IMG/VR virus record: IMGVR_UViG_2690316131_000008
Strand: one strand, 5' to 3'
From: a virus
Lineage: Duplodnaviria > Heunggongvirae > Uroviricota > Caudoviricetes
DNA: 16,062 bases
A program made the position numbers and the translations under genes. The notes below the pieces were generated by a model. That model was not told where the DNA came from. It did not search any database and was given only the letters and a program-made list of their open reading frames with translations. Positions 9,228 through 15,528 of the stretch are shown piece after piece. Every line of letters begins with the position of its first letter. Position 1 is the first letter of the stretch.

Positions 9228-9275
9228 GCGGTACCAGTTTGTACACTTGCTTCCGGCTGGTACCGCTCTTTTTAC
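9228..9275 (+). terminator. Rho-independent terminator upstream of the rdgC-like gene
   Basis: Perfect 10-bp stem gcggtaccag / ctggtaccgc (9228-9237 / 9257-9266) with a 19-nt loop, followed by tcttttta (9267-9274). Confidence 0.5.
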
Positions 9276-9396
9276 AAAACAGAGAAGAGCATCACCGGCC
9301 GACGGGCTCATAACCCAATCCATCCGGGCGGCTGCCACCGCAGGTGTTCTTCTCTGTTTTGTGGAGAAACTAATATCTTGTGCAGAGGAAAATAGA

Positions 9397-10314
9397 ATGA
9401 AATTACCAAAATTTCGTAACGCAATTGTGTACCGAGCAACATTACCTAGTATACAGGCTATTGAAGGTCATCTTCTCGAACTCCCTTATTCTGAAATCGG
9501 GGAAACAGAATTTTCACGGTCCTCTTTTGTAGAGAATCCTGTCACTGGTGAACTGGTAACTCCGATATCTGGTGGGTACGCAATGGTAATCCGTCATGAT
9601 CAGAAAATAATTCCCCGACATGTCGTCATGAAAGAAGCTAATTCTCGAATCCAAACAATCGAAAATATGTCCGGGAATAAATTAAAGCGTGCCGAACGAC
9701 TGGCCATTATTGATAACGTACGAGTAGATCTATGCAAACAGGCATTTGTTAAGTCTACGCTGATTCTTGCATTGTACAGCACTGATGAGAAATTATTGGT
9801 AATCAACACAACCAATAAAATAATAGCCGGTATGGTATGCGCAATGCTGATTAAGGTTGTCGGTTCAGTGAAAACAGAAACAATCAACATCAGTGATATC
9901 AAGAATGGACTGACTACACGCCTGAATAACTACATCAATGGTGCAGCCAATGCATTTGAAGGATTCACTGTCGGAAATTATATTCAGCTATCACGCTACG
10001 CAGATCAAAAGGAAATTATTCGCTACTCAGCTGAGCATGAGTCAATTCAAAGCGAACTGGCCGATAGTCTTAGTAGTAGTTTCACTGCTGATAAAATGGA
10101 GTTATCCGGTTGCGGTGTGACCTTCATTCTTACCGAAAATTTCCATTTTTCGCGCATCAATACTCAATCTCAGACATTTAATGATGAAGATGATAAAGCA
10201 TTCCAGTGGCGTCATCAGACTGGCGCTGACCTTTTCCAATTCAGCAAGGTAGTTAATTTGATGTGTGACCTTCTTTCTTACAAAGAAGATAAAAGCCAAA
10301 ATCCAACAACTTAA
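9397..10314 (+). CDS. RdgC-like recombination-associated protein
   Basis: 305 aa from the ATG at 9397 (GAGGA 7 nt upstream). N-terminus MKLPKFRNAIVYR parallels E. coli RdgC (MLWFKNLMVYR), and length matches (~303 aa). AT-rich. Family call from memory. Confidence 0.5.
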   Translation: MKLPKFRNAIVYRATLPSIQAIEGHLLELPYSEIGETEFSRSSFVENPVTGELVTPISGGYAMVIRHDQKIIPRHVVMKEANSRIQTIENMSGNKLKRAERLAIIDNVRVDLCKQAFVKSTLILALYSTDEKLLVINTTNKIIAGMVCAMLIKVVGSVKTETINISDIKNGLTTRLNNYINGAANAFEGFTVGNYIQLSRYADQKEIIRYSAEHESIQSELADSLSSSFTADKMELSGCGVTFILTENFHFSRINTQSQTFNDEDDKAFQWRHQTGADLFQFSKVVNLMCDLLSYKEDKSQNPTT

Positions 10315-10404
10315 AAAAATTGCAGCAATCATCCCATGTCAAATGGGCTGGATTGCTGCAATCAAAATTCAGAGCGGTGCAGCGCATATAACGTGGAGAA
10401 CAAA

Positions 10405-10941
10405 ATGTCATTTATTAAAACTTTTTCCGGGAAGCATTTTTATTATGACAAGATAAATAAAGACGACATCGTGATTAACGATATCGCGGTTTCCCTTTCA
10501 AATATCTGCCGCTTTGCCGGTCATCTTTCTCACTTCTACAGTGTCGCCCAACATGCGGTGCTTTGCAGCCAGCTGGTGCCGCAGGAATTTGCTTTTGAAG
10601 CGTTAATGCATGATGCAACAGAAGCGTATTGCCAGGATATTCCCGCTCCACTGAAACGCCTTCTTCCTGACTATAAACGGATGGAAGAAAAAATAGACGC
10701 CGTAATCCGTGAGAAATACGGGTTACCCCCGGTTATGAGCACGCCTGTGAAATATGCCGATCTCATCATGCTGGCAACCGAACGCCGCGATCTCGGGCTT
10801 GATGATGGCTCTTTCTGGCCAGTACTGGAAGGTATCCCGGCAACAGAAATGTTCAAAGTTATTCCACTGGCTCCGAGCCATGCCTACGGGATGTTTATGG
10901 AGCGCTTTAACGAGTTATCGGAGTTACGCACATGCGCATGA
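10405..10941 (+). CDS. HD-domain phosphohydrolase (YfbR-like putative 5'-deoxynucleotidase)
   Basis: Motifs AGHLSHFYSVAQHAV ... ALMHDATEAY (His...His-Asp) fit the HD superfamily. Start at the ATG at 10405 (GGAG 6 nt upstream). Confidence 0.65.
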   Translation: MSFIKTFSGKHFYYDKINKDDIVINDIAVSLSNICRFAGHLSHFYSVAQHAVLCSQLVPQEFAFEALMHDATEAYCQDIPAPLKRLLPDYKRMEEKIDAVIREKYGLPPVMSTPVKYADLIMLATERRDLGLDDGSFWPVLEGIPATEMFKVIPLAPSHAYGMFMERFNELSELRTCA

Positions 10942-11543
10942 ATGTTTTCGAAATGGAAGGGTTTCTTCGCGGGAAATGTGTACCACGAGATCTGAAAGTG
11001 AATGAAACAAATGCTGAATATCTGGTGCGTAAATTTGCTGAAGCGGAGGCCAAGATTTTGGCTCTGTCCGAAGACCAACAGAAAGCGATTGAGTCAATTA
11101 AGCAGGCTGATGCAGCTGTTAAGTTGGCACACGAGAAGTTTTCGGTGCTGGCGGCGGAGAATGCGGGGCTGAAACACGCAATGGCCGTAACTCTTGAGCA
11201 TGTGTCGGTCACGGATGCAGGGCAGGCTGGTGTTGCTGCAATGATTATCAACGATGCCCTACACCACAGCGAAACTCCAGCCACCGATGCTTTCCTGGCT
11301 GAAATTCGTGCGGAAGCACGCAACGAGGGGATTAACTATACCGCAAGCCGTCTTGCTGCTGCTTTCAATCACGGATTTATCAATGAGTCTTTACGTGAAG
11401 TTTTCGACGTTACACGCATGATTCTGTCAGCGAAAGAAGAGTTGGCTAATGAACCACACCCGATTGATGGCCTGTCCGGTGAATATGCGGAGAAATCCCT
11501 AGAAGAATGGGCGGAACAGATTCGCAAAGGAGGCAACCAGTGA
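10932..11543 (+). CDS. Hypothetical protein (Ala/Glu-rich, probably helical)
   Basis: 203-aa ORF overlapping the HD gene stop by 10 nt; GGAG upstream. No recognisable domain. Confidence 0.55.
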   Translation: MRMNVFEMEGFLRGKCVPRDLKVNETNAEYLVRKFAEAEAKILALSEDQQKAIESIKQADAAVKLAHEKFSVLAAENAGLKHAMAVTLEHVSVTDAGQAGVAAMIINDALHHSETPATDAFLAEIRAEARNEGINYTASRLAAAFNHGFINESLREVFDVTRMILSAKEELANEPHPIDGLSGEYAEKSLEEWAEQIRKGGNQ

Positions 11544-11764
11544 GCGGAAAAAGAATGACTAACAGAGAGCTTGTTGATGCCGCGATTAAGCTTGCTGGTG
11601 ATTTTTATTCAATGATGGGGTACGCGCATCGCCCTGGATTCAAATATTGGGAATCACCGCATCCGCAAGAGCAACTGGTATTTCAAATGGCCTGCCGTGC
11701 TTTTGAGGTTATTCGCGGTTCTGATGTGATGGACGCCGTTGCCGACTTGGAGGATGAAGAGTGA
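11540..11764 (+). CDS. Small hypothetical protein
   Basis: GTG start at 11540 overlapping the upstream TGA stop (GTGA), with AAGGAGG 6 nt upstream; an ATG at 11555 is the alternative start. Confidence 0.45.
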   Translation: MSGKRMTNRELVDAAIKLAGDFYSMMGYAHRPGFKYWESPHPQEQLVFQMACRAFEVIRGSDVMDAVADLEDEE

Positions 11765-12309
11765 CCCAAATTAACTATCAGGCACTGCGTGAAAAGGCAG
11801 AGAAAGCAACTAAAGGAAGCTACATCGTAGGGCATACATCTGTTAACCAGCACGGCAATTTAACAGGAGTTTTTGTTTGCCAAAAATGGAAAGGAGAACC
11901 CGGTGGCGTGATTGCGGAATGTCATGTTAACTGCCTGATTGAATCAGATGCTCAGGCTTATGCAAACGCTGAATTCATAGCAGAGGCTAACCCGGCTACC
12001 GTGCTGGCACTGCTGGATGAACAGGAAAGAAACCTGCAATACATCAAAAGCCGCGATCAGGAGAACGAGGATATTGCGCTAACGGTAGGGAAGCTGCGCG
12101 TTGAGCTTGAAGCAGAAAAACAGCGGGCAAAAGTTCTATTTATGGAAAATGCTCGGCTTAAGTCAGGCATAGCCGGTCTGATACACCTCGGTATTCGATA
12201 TGCAGATGTTGAGGTCATGAAAATTGCTGGAGATGCCCAGCTTTCTACCCCATGCACTGACAGCATCATAAACAGCATTGCAACAGGCATTCGCATCAAA
12301 GGAGAGTGA
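11761..12309 (+). CDS. Ead/Ea22-like protein
   Basis: N-terminus ...INYQALREKAEKATKGSY resembles the conserved N-terminus of Ea22-like early-left proteins of lambdoid phages. GTG start with GTGA overlap and GGAGG RBS. Confidence 0.55.
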   Translation: MTQINYQALREKAEKATKGSYIVGHTSVNQHGNLTGVFVCQKWKGEPGGVIAECHVNCLIESDAQAYANAEFIAEANPATVLALLDEQERNLQYIKSRDQENEDIALTVGKLRVELEAEKQRAKVLFMENARLKSGIAGLIHLGIRYADVEVMKIAGDAQLSTPCTDSIINSIATGIRIKGE

Positions 12310-12310
12310 T

Positions 12311-12826
12311 ATGGCGTTAACACACCACGAACTCTGTCAGATTGCGTACAAGTTCCTTAAGCGCAACGGGTTCAAGGTTTGCTTTCATGACCGCTTTGTT
12401 GCTGTAACCAGTACCGGAGAACAGCCAGATGCTATGGGATTCAGAAATTCAGCATCATGCCTGATAGAGGCGAAGTGTTCTCGTGCTGACTTGTTGGCAG
12501 ATAGAAAAAAGCGTTTCCGTAAAAATCCCTCACTTGGCATGGGCGACTGGCGATTCTTTATTAGTGAGCCGGAAATTATTTCAGTTGAGGATTTACCTCC
12601 CGGCTGGGGATTACTTCACGTTGTTAACGGAAGAGTACGGAAAGTACATGGATGGCCCAGGGGTAATTGCTGTTGGGGTAATCCTGACGATAAGCCATTT
12701 ACTGGGAATAAGCAGGTTGAATGCGATTACATGTTATCTGCATTAAGGCGCATGGAGTTGAGAGGGCACCTTAATGAAATATATGACGGTGTGATTGTTA
12801 ATAAGAAAGAAGGAAACGCGGCATGA
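12311..12826 (+). CDS. Hypothetical protein with PD-(D/E)xK-like nuclease signature
   Basis: Start at the ATG at 12311 (AGGAG 6 nt upstream). Sequence ...GEQPDAMGF...SCLIEAKCSRADL contains a PD ... E-x-K arrangement. Inference only. Confidence 0.45.
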   Translation: MALTHHELCQIAYKFLKRNGFKVCFHDRFVAVTSTGEQPDAMGFRNSASCLIEAKCSRADLLADRKKRFRKNPSLGMGDWRFFISEPEIISVEDLPPGWGLLHVVNGRVRKVHGWPRGNCCWGNPDDKPFTGNKQVECDYMLSALRRMELRGHLNEIYDGVIVNKKEGNAA

Positions 12827-13389
12827 TCACTATTACCAAAGGGCGACTGCTGACAATCCAGCAGTGGCGCGAAACATACGGACCTGGCAGCAACGTTGTA
12901 CTGCCAGCAGAAGAAGCGGAAGAACTGGCACGAATTGCACTGGTATCGCTGGAAGCAGAGCCTGTAAGCCAAACTTACAACTTGCCAGAATTAATCGAAG
13001 GCATGGAAGTTTCCATTGATGTAAGCACTTGTGATGTTGATTTAGGTAATCGCTATTTCGGTACCGTCACCGAGGCGTTAGAACTTGATACAGCCAAAAA
13101 TGGTTACATCCTCCTAGTTCAGGACGCAGAGCCAAACTTCGATGTAAATGGCAACTCTCCGGGAACTCCGGATAGTTGGATAAGCTGTAGTGATCGAATG
13201 CCTGAAAAGGGCCAGAACGTGCTTATTTCGGTGAATTTCGATAGCTCTCAGGTTGAACCGCTAATATGCTCCGCACGCTATACCGGAAGCACCTTTCGGC
13301 GCGGAGATGCAACGATTAAGCCGGGTAATGGTATTGAGCAAGCAACTCACTGGATGCCGCTACCGGAACCGCCGCTGGAGGTGAAGTGA
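12823..13389 (+). CDS. DUF551-like phage protein
   Basis: C-terminal WISCSDRMPEKGQNVLI ... THWMPLPEPP resembles the DUF551 conserved block of enterobacterial prophage proteins. ATGA overlap with the upstream gene. Confidence 0.6.
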   Translation: MITITKGRLLTIQQWRETYGPGSNVVLPAEEAEELARIALVSLEAEPVSQTYNLPELIEGMEVSIDVSTCDVDLGNRYFGTVTEALELDTAKNGYILLVQDAEPNFDVNGNSPGTPDSWISCSDRMPEKGQNVLISVNFDSSQVEPLICSARYTGSTFRRGDATIKPGNGIEQATHWMPLPEPPLEVK

Positions 13390-13961
13390 TGAACAACTTA
13401 ATGATCGACCTTGAGACGATGGGGAAAAATAAGGATGCACCGATCGTTTCCATTGGCGCGGTGTTCTTCACTCCAGAAATCGGAGACATCGGACAAGAAT
13501 TCTATACGGTTGTTAGCCTGGAAAGTGCTATGGAGCAAGGAGCTACACCTGACGGCGATACCATCCTGTGGTGGTTGAAACAAAGCCCTGAAGCACGAGC
13601 TGCAATCTGTATTGATGATACTTTGTCGATCAGCGATGCTCTCTCAGAACTAAATCATTTCATTAACCGGCACGCAGACAATACGAAATATTTAAAAGTC
13701 TGGGGTAACGGAGCCACCTTCGACAACGTAATTTTACGTGGAGCTTATGAGCGAGCAGGACAAATCTGCCCGTGGGCATACTGGAATGACCACGATGTAC
13801 GCACGATCGTTACGCTTGGGCGTTCCATCGGATTCGACCCCAAAATGGACATGCCTTTCGATGGCGAACGGCACAACGCCCTGGCTGATGCCCGTCATCA
13901 GGCAAAATATGTTTCCGCTATCTGGCAGAAATTAATTCCTGCCACCAGCACAGAATTATGA
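13389..13961 (+). CDS. DEDDh-type 3'-5' exonuclease (DnaQ-like)
   Basis: Exo motifs IDLETMG (D-x-E), WGNGATFD and HNALADARH (H-x4-D). Start at the ATG at 13389, or the GTG at 13386 overlapping the upstream stop. Confidence 0.75.
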   Translation: MNNLMIDLETMGKNKDAPIVSIGAVFFTPEIGDIGQEFYTVVSLESAMEQGATPDGDTILWWLKQSPEARAAICIDDTLSISDALSELNHFINRHADNTKYLKVWGNGATFDNVILRGAYERAGQICPWAYWNDHDVRTIVTLGRSIGFDPKMDMPFDGERHNALADARHQAKYVSAIWQKLIPATSTEL

Positions 13962-13997
13962 TTTTCCCGGGTGCAGCCGGTTTTGATGGAGAAAATT

Positions 13998-14279
13998 ATG
14001 AACACCTTGTTTTTACTGATGGCTGAATTCAATACCCCAAACATTGAACTCTCAGCAGTTAGCCAAAAGTACTTTGGTATGAGTCCAGCCACGGCAGAAG
14101 CAAAAGCAAACGCTTGTAAGTTGCCCGTTCCAACATATCGCATCGGCACATCACAAAAAGCAAAACGTTGCATCAATATTCAGGATCTTGCGGAATACAT
14201 AGACAAAAGGCGAGAAGAAGGACGTATCGAGTGGGAACAGGTCAGAACAGTCAAACAGAAGGGCAAAGAAAATCACTAA
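13998..14279 (+). CDS. PrtN-family excisionase-like protein (putative Xis)
   Basis: MNTLFLLMAEFNTPNIELSAVSQKYFGMSPATAEAKANACKLPVPTYRIG...IQDLAEYID resembles PrtN/Xis-type small DNA-binding proteins. ATG at 13998 with GGAG upstream. Last gene of the plus-strand operon. Confidence 0.6.
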   Translation: MNTLFLLMAEFNTPNIELSAVSQKYFGMSPATAEAKANACKLPVPTYRIGTSQKAKRCINIQDLAEYIDKRREEGRIEWEQVRTVKQKGKENH

Positions 14280-14281
14280 AG

Positions 14282-14307
14282 AAAAAACCCGCCTGAAGGC
14301 GGGTTTT
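14282..14307. terminator. Bidirectional Rho-independent terminator between convergent operons
   Basis: A6-cccgcc-tgaa-ggcggg-T4: a 6-bp GC stem with tetraloop, flanked by an A-run on one side and a T-run on the other, so it can terminate both the plus-strand xis transcript and the minus-strand Panacea operon. Confidence 0.65.
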
Positions 14308-14326
14308 CAAAAAGCACCAGCTATGA

Positions 14327-14539: not shown

Positions 14540-14959
14540 TTACTCATCATCAATAGATGATACGCAATATTTATTTTTAAATTTAAGGTTCTTTGGCGTA
14601 ACTTCATCAGAGATATCAAAACCGTCCAGAATTCTATTGAATGTAGCTTCTGGCATATCATCATGAACAGAAATCTCACCCGATCGCTGCTTTCTAACCA
14701 TGTTATCCACTCGCCAAATTATAGCTTCAGCGTAAACAACATAACTTGGATGCTTGATAAAGCGATGATCACCAGAATTCAAGACGCAAGACGGATCGTG
14801 GGGGACACCATCCTTGATACTAGAAATATTAACAACTAAAACACAATAACAATCGTTAACGGGGTAATAAACAGGATCATTACAAATCACATGAAGATGA
14901 TTGCATGGTCCAGTTGGGGCAAGCACAGTTCCTTTCCTGTATGGCTGATAATCCGTCAT
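14540..14959 (-). CDS. Hypothetical protein; candidate toxin/effector partner of the Panacea-domain protein
   Basis: 139 aa, AT-rich, Cys/His-rich (CNHLHVICNDP...CYCVL...HDPSCVL). Start codon overlaps the stop of the upstream Panacea gene (ATGA at 14956-14959). No recognisable domain by eye. Confidence 0.55.
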   Translation of the reverse strand: MTDYQPYRKGTVLAPTGPCNHLHVICNDPVYYPVNDCYCVLVVNISSIKDGVPHDPSCVLNSGDHRFIKHPSYVVYAEAIIWRVDNMVRKQRSGEISVHDDMPEATFNRILDGFDISDEVTPKNLKFKNKYCVSSIDDE

Positions 14960-15528
14960 GATAATTGCAAAGAAAATTCCTTAAGTTTCTGAGATTCTTC
15001 CATTTTGCCAATTATGCGATTAGCCTCATCCTCGCTTTTACCCTCACTGATCAGCATTTCTTTCAGGTCTATAGGCTTACGAGAATTGCCAGGATCGTGC
15101 CACTCTGGACAAACGCTTTCTAAATGCGTCATATTTGCGAGATCAAATCGGTTCATATGCCCATACCGAGAATAGATTTCATCTAAAATCCGGATATCTG
15201 CACGACTCAATTCATCAAAGACCTCGTCTGCATCCATTTCCCTCGGATCTGAACGCAACGATACATTATGCCCGTTCGTCTCTATCAAGTTGTACCAGTA
15301 GTCACCAATGCCTTCAGCCTTACCGCGAATCAAGTTCAGCGTATTCGACATGACTGGTCCAAATTTCATAGAGTAAAGGCTATCTTCGCCGATCATCCTG
15401 CCATGCTTCAAAATCGACTGGCGGTTAGACAGATAGAGCAGCTTCATCAATTTCAGATATGCCATGCGCCCACCTCTCTTAAGAAGTAGGTATGCAGCCA
15501 TTTGAGCTACTTTTTCTTCGCAAAACAT
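14956..15528 (-). CDS. Panacea-domain (DUF4065) protein, PanA/SocA-like putative antitoxin
   Basis: MAYLKLMKLLYLSNRQSILKHGRMIGEDSLYSMKFGPV... parallels the Panacea core (MKLQKLLYFA ... W.YGPV) of SocA/PanA antitoxins. AT-rich; GAGG ~8 nt upstream of the ATG at 15528. Confidence 0.65.
   Translation of the reverse strand: MFCEEKVAQMAAYLLLKRGGRMAYLKLMKLLYLSNRQSILKHGRMIGEDSLYSMKFGPVMSNTLNLIRGKAEGIGDYWYNLIETNGHNVSLRSDPREMDADEVFDELSRADIRILDEIYSRYGHMNRFDLANMTHLESVCPEWHDPGNSRKPIDLKEMLISEGKSEDEANRIIGKMEESQKLKEFSLQLS

Follow-up and report, generated by a model that had tools for sequence, protein, structure and literature searches.

Do genes that overlap at their ends in a compact phage operon encode the parts of one protein complex, or are they neighbours that can be exchanged one at a time? 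Here we examine this question for three consecutive genes in a stretch of viral DNA of 16,062 nucleotides (nt; IMG/VR record IMGVR_UViG_2690316131_000008), which we refer to at its full length as the window. The window belongs to the Stx1a (Shiga toxin 1a)-converting phage Lys8385Vzw, a prophage in dusA of Escherichia coli O103 RM8385. Gene 1 (12,311-12,826, plus strand) is an intact open reading frame (ORF) with an ATG start for a protein of 171 amino acids (aa) with a predicted PD-(D/E)xK nuclease fold. Gene 2 (12,823-13,389, plus strand) also starts with ATG and encodes a mosaic DUF551 protein of 188 aa, and gene 3 (13,389-13,961, plus strand) encodes a putative DEDDh 3'-5' exonuclease of 190 aa from the Rv2179c-like/T4 DexA family. 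An earlier note on this DNA, written from the sequence alone, had taken the tight coupling of the trio as a sign of a stoichiometric complex acting on DNA ends. The three consecutive overlapping ORFs that it described are real, and all of them belong to large families rather than being chance ORFs. From sequence comparison we conclude that the trio probably represents the last accessory genes before an excisionase gene, three independently exchangeable modules and not a dedicated complex, because the single genes are common and their joint stretch is rare, the junction before the exonuclease is independent of the gene upstream of it, and overlaps are ubiquitous.

In a stoichiometric DNA-end-processing complex, the gene 1 product would cut or nick DNA, the gene 3 product would resect it, the DUF551 protein would serve as an adaptor, and coupling would set the ratio of the three. 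An endonuclease and an exonuclease make a sensible biochemical pairing, both enzymes of the trio have intact active sites, the genes are contiguous and overlapping, and the exact arrangement recurs in at least 7 complete E. coli genomes and in 5 viral contigs. However, the three genes occur together at about the level of mosaic shuffling. In our survey of 5426 complete E. coli genomes, where single genes were counted at a coverage of at least 80%, gene 1 was present in 910 genomes and gene 3 in 407, as against 7 with the whole stretch. The copies that share the arrangement are 96.4-100% identical at the DNA level and thus represent one lineage rather than independent retention. A full-length exonuclease lay nearby in only 1 of 25 loci from other species that were found via gene 1, with a 33-residue remnant in another, and an iterated local search with hidden Markov models placed DUF551 proteins in only a few of these loci. 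Among 80 viral contigs with a near-identical gene 1, 5 carried the full trio, and the commonest order was an Ea22-like gene, gene 1, and then a gene sharing only the N-terminal part of gene 2.

When loci were centred on the exonuclease, gene 1 was found within 2.5 kb upstream in 4 of 80, and a DUF551 gene was nearby in 26 of the 80. The gene directly upstream of the exonuclease encoded a DUF551 protein in 25 of 79 loci and was mostly unrelated otherwise; in the group of ~82%-identical exonucleases, a DUF551 protein was directly upstream in none. An excisionase gene directly followed the exonuclease in all near-identical viral loci (43 of 43). Fusion scanning of 10 longer relatives of gene 1 revealed neither an exonuclease nor a DUF551 domain; these proteins carried TniB, Ead/Ea22 or dATP/dGTP pyrophosphohydrolase domains, and some may be merged gene calls. 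Across lineages, then, the component genes were not retained together.

The overlaps themselves were examined at the level of individual junctions. The earlier note gave them as ATGA or GTGA, which is correct for the first and not for the second. Genes 1 and 2 share a true ATGA overlap (12,823-12,826), whereas genes 2 and 3 meet in TGATG, an overlap of 1 nt from the ATG at 13,389. A GTG codon that would produce GTGA does exist at 13,386, but we rejected it as the start of gene 3 in favour of this ATG, which is almost certainly the real start on the following sequence evidence. Nearly all of the 120 listed gene 3 homologues start with MN(H/N)LMIDL or a close variant (74 exactly with MNHLMIDL or MNNLMIDL), and both RefSeq and GenBank annotate the start at the ATG. 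The Shine-Dalgarno-like GGAGG (13,377-13,381) is positioned 7 nt ahead of the ATG and 4 nt ahead of the GTG. Two related loci (L107 and L136) carry GTAATG at the junction, so that the GTG is lost and the ATG kept.

Locus comparison defined a conserved junction, GGAGGTGAAGTGATG (13,377-13,391, plus strand), that comprises the Shine-Dalgarno sequence of gene 3, the upstream stop codon and the gene 3 ATG. In loci where the upstream gene is unrelated (L110 and L107), similarity to the window starts 15-18 nt before the ATG, at GGAGGTGAAGT(G/A)ATG, and the differing upstream proteins, although unrelated, therefore all end in ...QEVK. The -4/-1 junction before the exonuclease is likewise kept with an unrelated upstream protein of 103 aa or 269 aa. 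Because the junction persists with unrelated upstream genes, the gene 2/gene 3 overlap is the region in which translation of the exonuclease itself starts, put to further use as a recombination or module boundary. Nor is the spacing peculiar to the trio. Going from yfdR to the exonuclease in the phage record, six junctions follow one another and each is an overlap or a 1-nt gap, so that four genes upstream of the trio share its tight spacing, and in the operon on the opposite strand 7 of 12 junctions are overlaps of 1 or 4 nt. Overlaps of 4 nt and 1 nt are thus the generic compact spacing of Lys8385Vzw and are not distinctive. With genes that travel apart, overlaps that are the default spacing, and a junction that survives a change of upstream gene, the step from tight coupling to a stoichiometric complex is not supported, and we regard such a complex as highly improbable.

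Two pairings weigh against our conclusion that the trio is simply three separate modules. That of gene 1 with the N-terminal part of gene 2 and that of DUF551 with the exonuclease are each fairly common in closely related E. coli prophages. A pairwise interaction is possible on these grounds; common descent explains the pairings equally well.

What, then, do the separate genes encode? Gene 3 gave the clearest assignment. It matched PF16473 (Rv2179c-like) with 250 bits and an E value of 1.4e-74 against a cut-off of 27, residues 3-180 covering positions 1-177 of the 177-position profile, and matched phrog_255 ('exonuclease') with an E value of 3e-93. The DnaQ-like Exo I-III motifs are present as the earlier note had quoted them, namely IDLETMG (D7, E9), WGNGATFD (D112) and HNALADARH (H162, D167; numbering of the 190-aa protein), and the five catalytic residues are invariant across 24 homologues with 64-97% identity to gene 3. 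Among solved structures, only those of T4 DexA, 8KEL and 8KEN, could be detected from the gene 3 sequence, the former with an E value of 1e-10 for the single sequence and 2e-15 for a profile, so that the DEDD motifs do align to exonuclease models. We accordingly place gene 3, on sequence criteria, among the DEDDh exonucleases of the T4 DexA family. Its product would remove nucleotides in the 3'-to-5' direction from DNA ends through two-metal DEDDh chemistry.

We considered whether gene 3 could instead be a 3'-5' exoribonuclease like Mycobacterium tuberculosis Rv2179c/RNase AS, which would trim or degrade host or phage transcripts. The Pfam family is named for Rv2179c, and many database copies are labelled '3'-5' exoribonuclease'. 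However, only structures of the DNase DexA were detectable, and no Rv2179c chain was found among PDB matches at E values of 0.01 or below; the NCBIfam RNase AS model scored 16.5 bits against a cut-off of 200; and EcD, the characterised E. coli relative, acts on DNA. Sequence similarity thus favours a DexA-like DNase over RNase AS, and we consider an RNA-degrading role quite unlikely.

The earlier note had considered the function of this gene combination not established. For the exonuclease family such a view is out of date, as a 2025 study characterised both T4 DexA and EcD, its homologue from E. coli; EcD degrades T4 DNA containing 5-hydroxymethylcytosine (5hmC) and protects against T4, under the name 'HREX' (PMC12153337). 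DexA and gene 3 are both phage-encoded and belong to the same Pfam family. The DexA residues D7, D119, H186 and D191 correspond to D7, D112, H162 and D167 of gene 3, and the two proteins share an MxxIDxETMG N-terminus, a WW(x)QSxEAR helix and an FWN(x)RD(I/V)RT segment that includes W152 of DexA and W132 of gene 3. Identity is ~28-30% over ~140 residues, and ~28% to the T-even DexA genes in phage records. At 190 aa, gene 3 is without the extra loops of the 227-aa DexA. Its phage is temperate and lambdoid with unmodified DNA, and offers no obvious counterpart to the role of DexA in relation to 5hmC and intron homing.

For comparison with EcD we used an EcD-type sequence rebuilt from the published forward primer together with a check for A78, and not taken from an accession. 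ORFs of 189 aa starting with MIDTETLGNG were found in 7 viral contigs; 6 of the 7 end in TTPFLNI, and all 7 have alanine at position 78. The published EcD reverse primer has one extra A relative to these rebuilt sequences. The rebuilt EcD and gene 3 are 37% identical over 183 residues (E value 7e-38), are of similar length (189 and 190 aa), have the same catalytic residues, and both fall in PF16473 and phrog_255. By sequence, gene 3 belongs to the family of EcD but to another subfamily. The gene neighbourhoods also differ: the EcD-type gene lies by a DNA methyltransferase gene and small genes of unknown function, and gene 3 by DUF551 and excisionase genes. In the IMG/VR viral contigs, where the EcD-type gene occurs in L209 (6401-6970, minus strand) and also in L188, L193, L203, L204 and L206, its neighbours include the DNA methyltransferase, a nucleoside 2-deoxyribosyltransferase-like gene, regulators and an integrase. 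The proximity of an integrase in viral contigs indicates that EcD-type genes are prophage-borne; the HREX paper makes no mention of prophages for EcD (PMC12153337).

The relationship to EcD raises a further possibility, that gene 3 is an HREX-type superinfection-exclusion or defence exonuclease directed against 5hmC-containing or otherwise modified DNA, as in T-even phages, with host DNA spared and genes 1 and 2 as unrelated passengers. Gene 3 is in the Pfam and PHROG family of EcD, whose expression from a plasmid protects E. coli against T4 (PMC12153337), and shares with the rebuilt EcD-type protein the 37% identity given above. W132 aligns with W152 of DexA, and the gene is located near the attachment-site end of the prophage, by a pair of Panacea-domain genes, in a region where defence genes are often found. 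On the other side, the defence type is defined by loss of DexA D90 (A78 in EcD) (PMC12153337), and this loss is absent from gene 3: its S80 and D83 align with the DexA tetramer-interface residues S87 and D90, the EcD alanine aligning at S82/D83. With S80 and D83 kept, the gene 3 sequence falls outside that definition. The D90-equivalent position varies across the subfamily. S146 stands opposite DexA D169, in a low-confidence stretch of the alignment. In addition, gene 3 lies in a repressor-controlled early operon, and scanning found no promoter-like site within the trio or shortly before it, which makes its expression in an uninduced lysogen doubtful. A search of PADLOC (2023) returned only a weak, generic DEDDh match (E value 2e-5). 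On balance a defence role for gene 3 seems unlikely.

We consider it more likely that gene 3 acts in lytic growth, where it would trim or degrade DNA ends for recombination or for DexA-like nucleotide salvage. A lytic role is favoured because the gene is co-transcribed with early lytic genes, has no promoter-like site of its own nearby, and is followed, after the excisionase gene, by a hairpin described below. Two points count against this account of gene 3. Whether the substrate is DNA or RNA, and whether modified DNA is preferred, cannot be read from the sequence, and the Pfam namesake is an exoribonuclease; further, the choice between lytic growth and defence is a weak one, for which operon position and the absence of a promoter-like site are the sole grounds.

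Gene 1, preceded by the Shine-Dalgarno sequence AGGAG (12,298-12,302), gave no Pfam match at E values up to 10 and nothing useful in NCBIfam. The PD...E-x-K arrangement that the earlier note had pointed out is well supported. The motif, QPD(40)...IE(53)AK(55), is unchanged across 32 homologues with 59-96% identity to gene 1, and H5, D40, E53 and K55 are invariant in the family alignment together with an SR-x-D-x3-D-x2-K motif. The AlphaFold2 model, which has a predicted local distance difference test (pLDDT) score of 85 and a predicted template modelling score of 0.80, contains the alpha-beta-beta-beta-alpha-beta core, so that the suggested PD-(D/E)xK fold of the 171-aa protein is borne out in structure prediction. 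In this model D40 opens strand 2, and strand 3 contains E53 and K55.

The nearest structural likeness of gene 1 is to a solved member of PF06319, a family whose current Pfam name is MmcB-like. D40, E53 and K55 align with the D...E-C-K of this structure, 3dnx (SPO1766; PF06319, DUF1052, COG5321), and the two proteins share the pattern D...E-x-K-SR-x-DF-x-AD-x-K. The 3dnx family (DUF1052/PF06319) has been catalogued among the PD-(D/E)xK families (PMC3424549), and MmcB of Caulobacter has been described as a PD-(D/E)xK endonuclease conferring protection from mitomycin C (PMC9578287). Foldseek comparison with viral models also returned several phage proteins named 'MmcB-like DNA repair protein'. 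Membership of gene 1 in PF06319 was considered and rejected: none of the 32 family members matched it in Pfam, and 6 of 10 distant relatives scored 12.8-18.4 bits. As neither gene 1 nor its relatives reach the curated threshold of 22, we filed the family as a sister of PF06319. Sub-threshold Hjc matches were noted in 16 of the 32 family members (best E value 0.0012, Pfam); these fit the superfamily but do not establish membership. We conclude that gene 1, as judged from the model, combines a PD-(D/E)xK fold and an intact D-ExK site, and represents a sister family to MmcB-like proteins. Its product is probably an Mg2+-dependent endonuclease that would most likely be specific for structures or lesions and would act on intermediates of replication or recombination.

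Gene 1 differs from MmcB-like proteins in having an extra C-terminal helical part, and in being phage-borne in Enterobacterales where the MmcB family is chromosomal in alpha-proteobacteria; unlike MmcB, it has no known tie to SOS or crosslink repair. We identified 308 close relatives of ~170 aa, of which the named ones are from Enterobacterales genera, with genome loci reaching Shewanella and Alteromonas, and an exhaustive profile search (E values of 0.001 or below) gave 3274 clusters at 50% identity for the family as a whole. In most genomes of other species the gene is located after replication genes, in a nin-like position, and not beside an excisionase. The phrog_16308 match covers residues 1-55 only, and PADLOC gave no match. 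In RefSeq, the annotation pipeline PGAP reduces gene 1 to a 179-nt 'frameshifted' pseudogene (L001, 13,112-13,290). We rejected this call, as the ORF is full-length at 171 aa, keeps all residues that are invariant in the family, and is intact elsewhere, including the phage record; in all 30 records sampled from the 910 E. coli genomes it is a 'hypothetical protein'. The likely origin of the pseudogene call is an alignment with a reference protein of another mosaic structure.

The nature of genes 1 and 3 allows one further combination, in which gene 1, belonging to a phage-borne sister family of MmcB-like proteins that is very large and lacks Pfam coverage, with no Pfam match among the close relatives, would in this phage lineage work together with the DexA-like exonuclease in a two-step cut-and-resect system against modified superinfecting DNA, or against host DNA in lytic growth. 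We consider this very unlikely.

Gene 2 lies between the two enzymes, and the earlier note's description of it as a DUF551 protein with no known function is confirmed. The DUF551 domain (PF04448) occupies residues 118-184 (nt 13,174-13,374) and aligns to positions 1-67 of the 68-position profile with 77.3 bits against a cut-off of 22 (E value 1.7e-21). Ahead of this C-terminal domain are a variable N-terminal module (about aa 1-47) and a middle module (about aa 48-112). More than 8000 relatives were found, with lengths of 160-319 aa among the 120 listed, and some are fused to Ead/Ea22. In alignment they vary block by block, in the N-terminal segment, the middle segment, optional insertions and the DUF551 end. 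This agrees with the published description of Ea22/DUF551 genes in Stx phages as mosaic and of DUF551 as a portable domain of unknown function (PMC10834534). The AlphaFold2 model of gene 2 was unusable (pLDDT 34), the alignment behind it being shallow, with 16 near-identical sequences; the gene 2 sequence had no match in the PDB, and NCBIfam and PADLOC returned nothing useful. We interpret gene 2, from its sequence, as a shuffled DUF551 protein. GenBank MT225100.1 labels the same gene (Lys8385Vzw_33) 'valyl-tRNA synthetase', a name that has no backing in Pfam, PHROGs or NCBIfam.

The setting of the trio is well defined. The 1.9-kb stretch around it shows 100% identity with the E. coli O103 RM8385 chromosome and with two further genomes of Shiga toxin-producing E. 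coli (STEC), and the exonuclease protein is 100% identical to the copy in Escherichia phage Lys8385Vzw (MT225100.1). This phage has been induced and sequenced as a circular genome, its integration site is dusA, and it is reported to lack the lambda Red genes (PMC7946995). In the prophage, a Q antiterminator gene is followed by replication and regulatory genes, a cI/LexA-like repressor gene and then the rightward operon, which consists of yfdP, yfdQ, yfdR, Ead/Ea22-like genes, the trio and a PrtN-family excisionase gene. The Ead/Ea22-like gene directly before the trio (11,761-12,309, plus strand; PF13935, E value 2.3e-34; annotated ead/Ea22-like) has its stop 1 nt before the start of gene 1. 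The excisionase-like gene (13,971-14,279, plus strand; PF11112, E value 4e-23; phrog_1300 'excisionase') is the last of the operon. After it, a terminator scan and direct reading of the sequence identified a GC-rich hairpin, CCCGCC-TGAA-GGCGGG, with A and T runs alongside (14,283-14,308), which is likely to be a bidirectional terminator closing both the plus-strand operon and the convergent minus-strand genes. A scan of the whole window against Rfam found no RNA family. The early-left operon of a functional, inducible Shiga toxin phage thus has the trio at its distal end.

Several neighbouring genes deserve mention in their own right. The YfdR homologue (10,336-10,941), an HD-domain 5'-deoxynucleotidase, is the most constant companion of the exonuclease, being present within 2.5 kb upstream in 56 of the 80 viral loci. 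An exonuclease that produces deoxynucleoside monophosphates and a 5'-deoxynucleotidase would make a plausible nucleotide-salvage pair; shared operon ancestry could also explain the linkage. DnaA binding has been reported for YfdR of CPS-53. The YfdQ homologue (9247-10,314) matches NCBIfam RdgC models with an E value of 1e-25, below their threshold, and phrog_724 ('exonuclease recombination-associated'). At 10,932-11,543 both the window and MT225100.1 carry an intact ORF of 203 aa (phrog_14548/614), which the phage record names 'Eae protein'; RefSeq has at this position a 135-nt partial pseudogene only, the remainder being unannotated.

Beyond the operon come the convergent Panacea-domain gene pair (14,540-15,528, minus strand) and then a dusA fragment that marks the attachment site. 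The pair consists of a gene for a 190-aa protein with a Panacea/SocA-like antitoxin domain (PF13274, E value 2e-19) and, overlapping it by 4 nt, a 139-aa gene of an unknown family. Placed between the excisionase gene and the attachment site, the two genes resemble a toxin-antitoxin or defence-type moron pair; they had no match in PADLOC 2023. In the circular phage genome the integrase is found beyond this pair, and hence there is no integrase within the window.

All three kinds of gene are already known, and the phage has been sequenced and published. What is mildly new is the fold assignment and size of the gene 1 family, the recognition of DexA/EcD-type 'bacterial' exonucleases as prophage genes, and the corrections to annotation. 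More generally, a protein complex should not be deduced from start/stop overlaps in the early operons of lambdoid phages. The analysis provides better labels for three Shiga toxin phage genes, one of them a 'frameshifted pseudogene' in RefSeq and one a 'valyl-tRNA synthetase' in GenBank. The gene 1 family, large and widespread with an intact nuclease active site, unnamed and unstudied, is a modest lead. A second modest lead concerns the DexA-like exonucleases, for which a role in defence against T4 was recently proposed: their genes are common in prophages, and neither the neighbours nor the expression state of these genes has so far been considered. Were the Stx-prophage copy active in lysogens, there could be consequences for the use of T-even phages in phage therapy or biocontrol of STEC.

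As a locus, the trio region is the counterpart of the stretch between exo and xis in lambda and of the yfdP-T cluster of CPS-53. The published phenotypes of these regions (a lysis-lysogeny bias, tolerance of oxidative stress, and the binding of YfdR to DnaA) concern genes other than the trio, and lambda, unlike Lys8385Vzw, has neither an MmcB-like nor a DexA-like gene between exo and xis. In lambda exo-xis and CPS-53 yfdP-yfdT, as here, accessory genes fill the early-left niche between recombination or yfdQ/yfdR-type genes and xis, and the CPS-53 cluster, with its Ea22, YfdS/DUF551 and YfdR proteins, draws like Lys8385Vzw on the yfdP, yfdQ, yfdR, Ead/Ea22 and DUF551 families.

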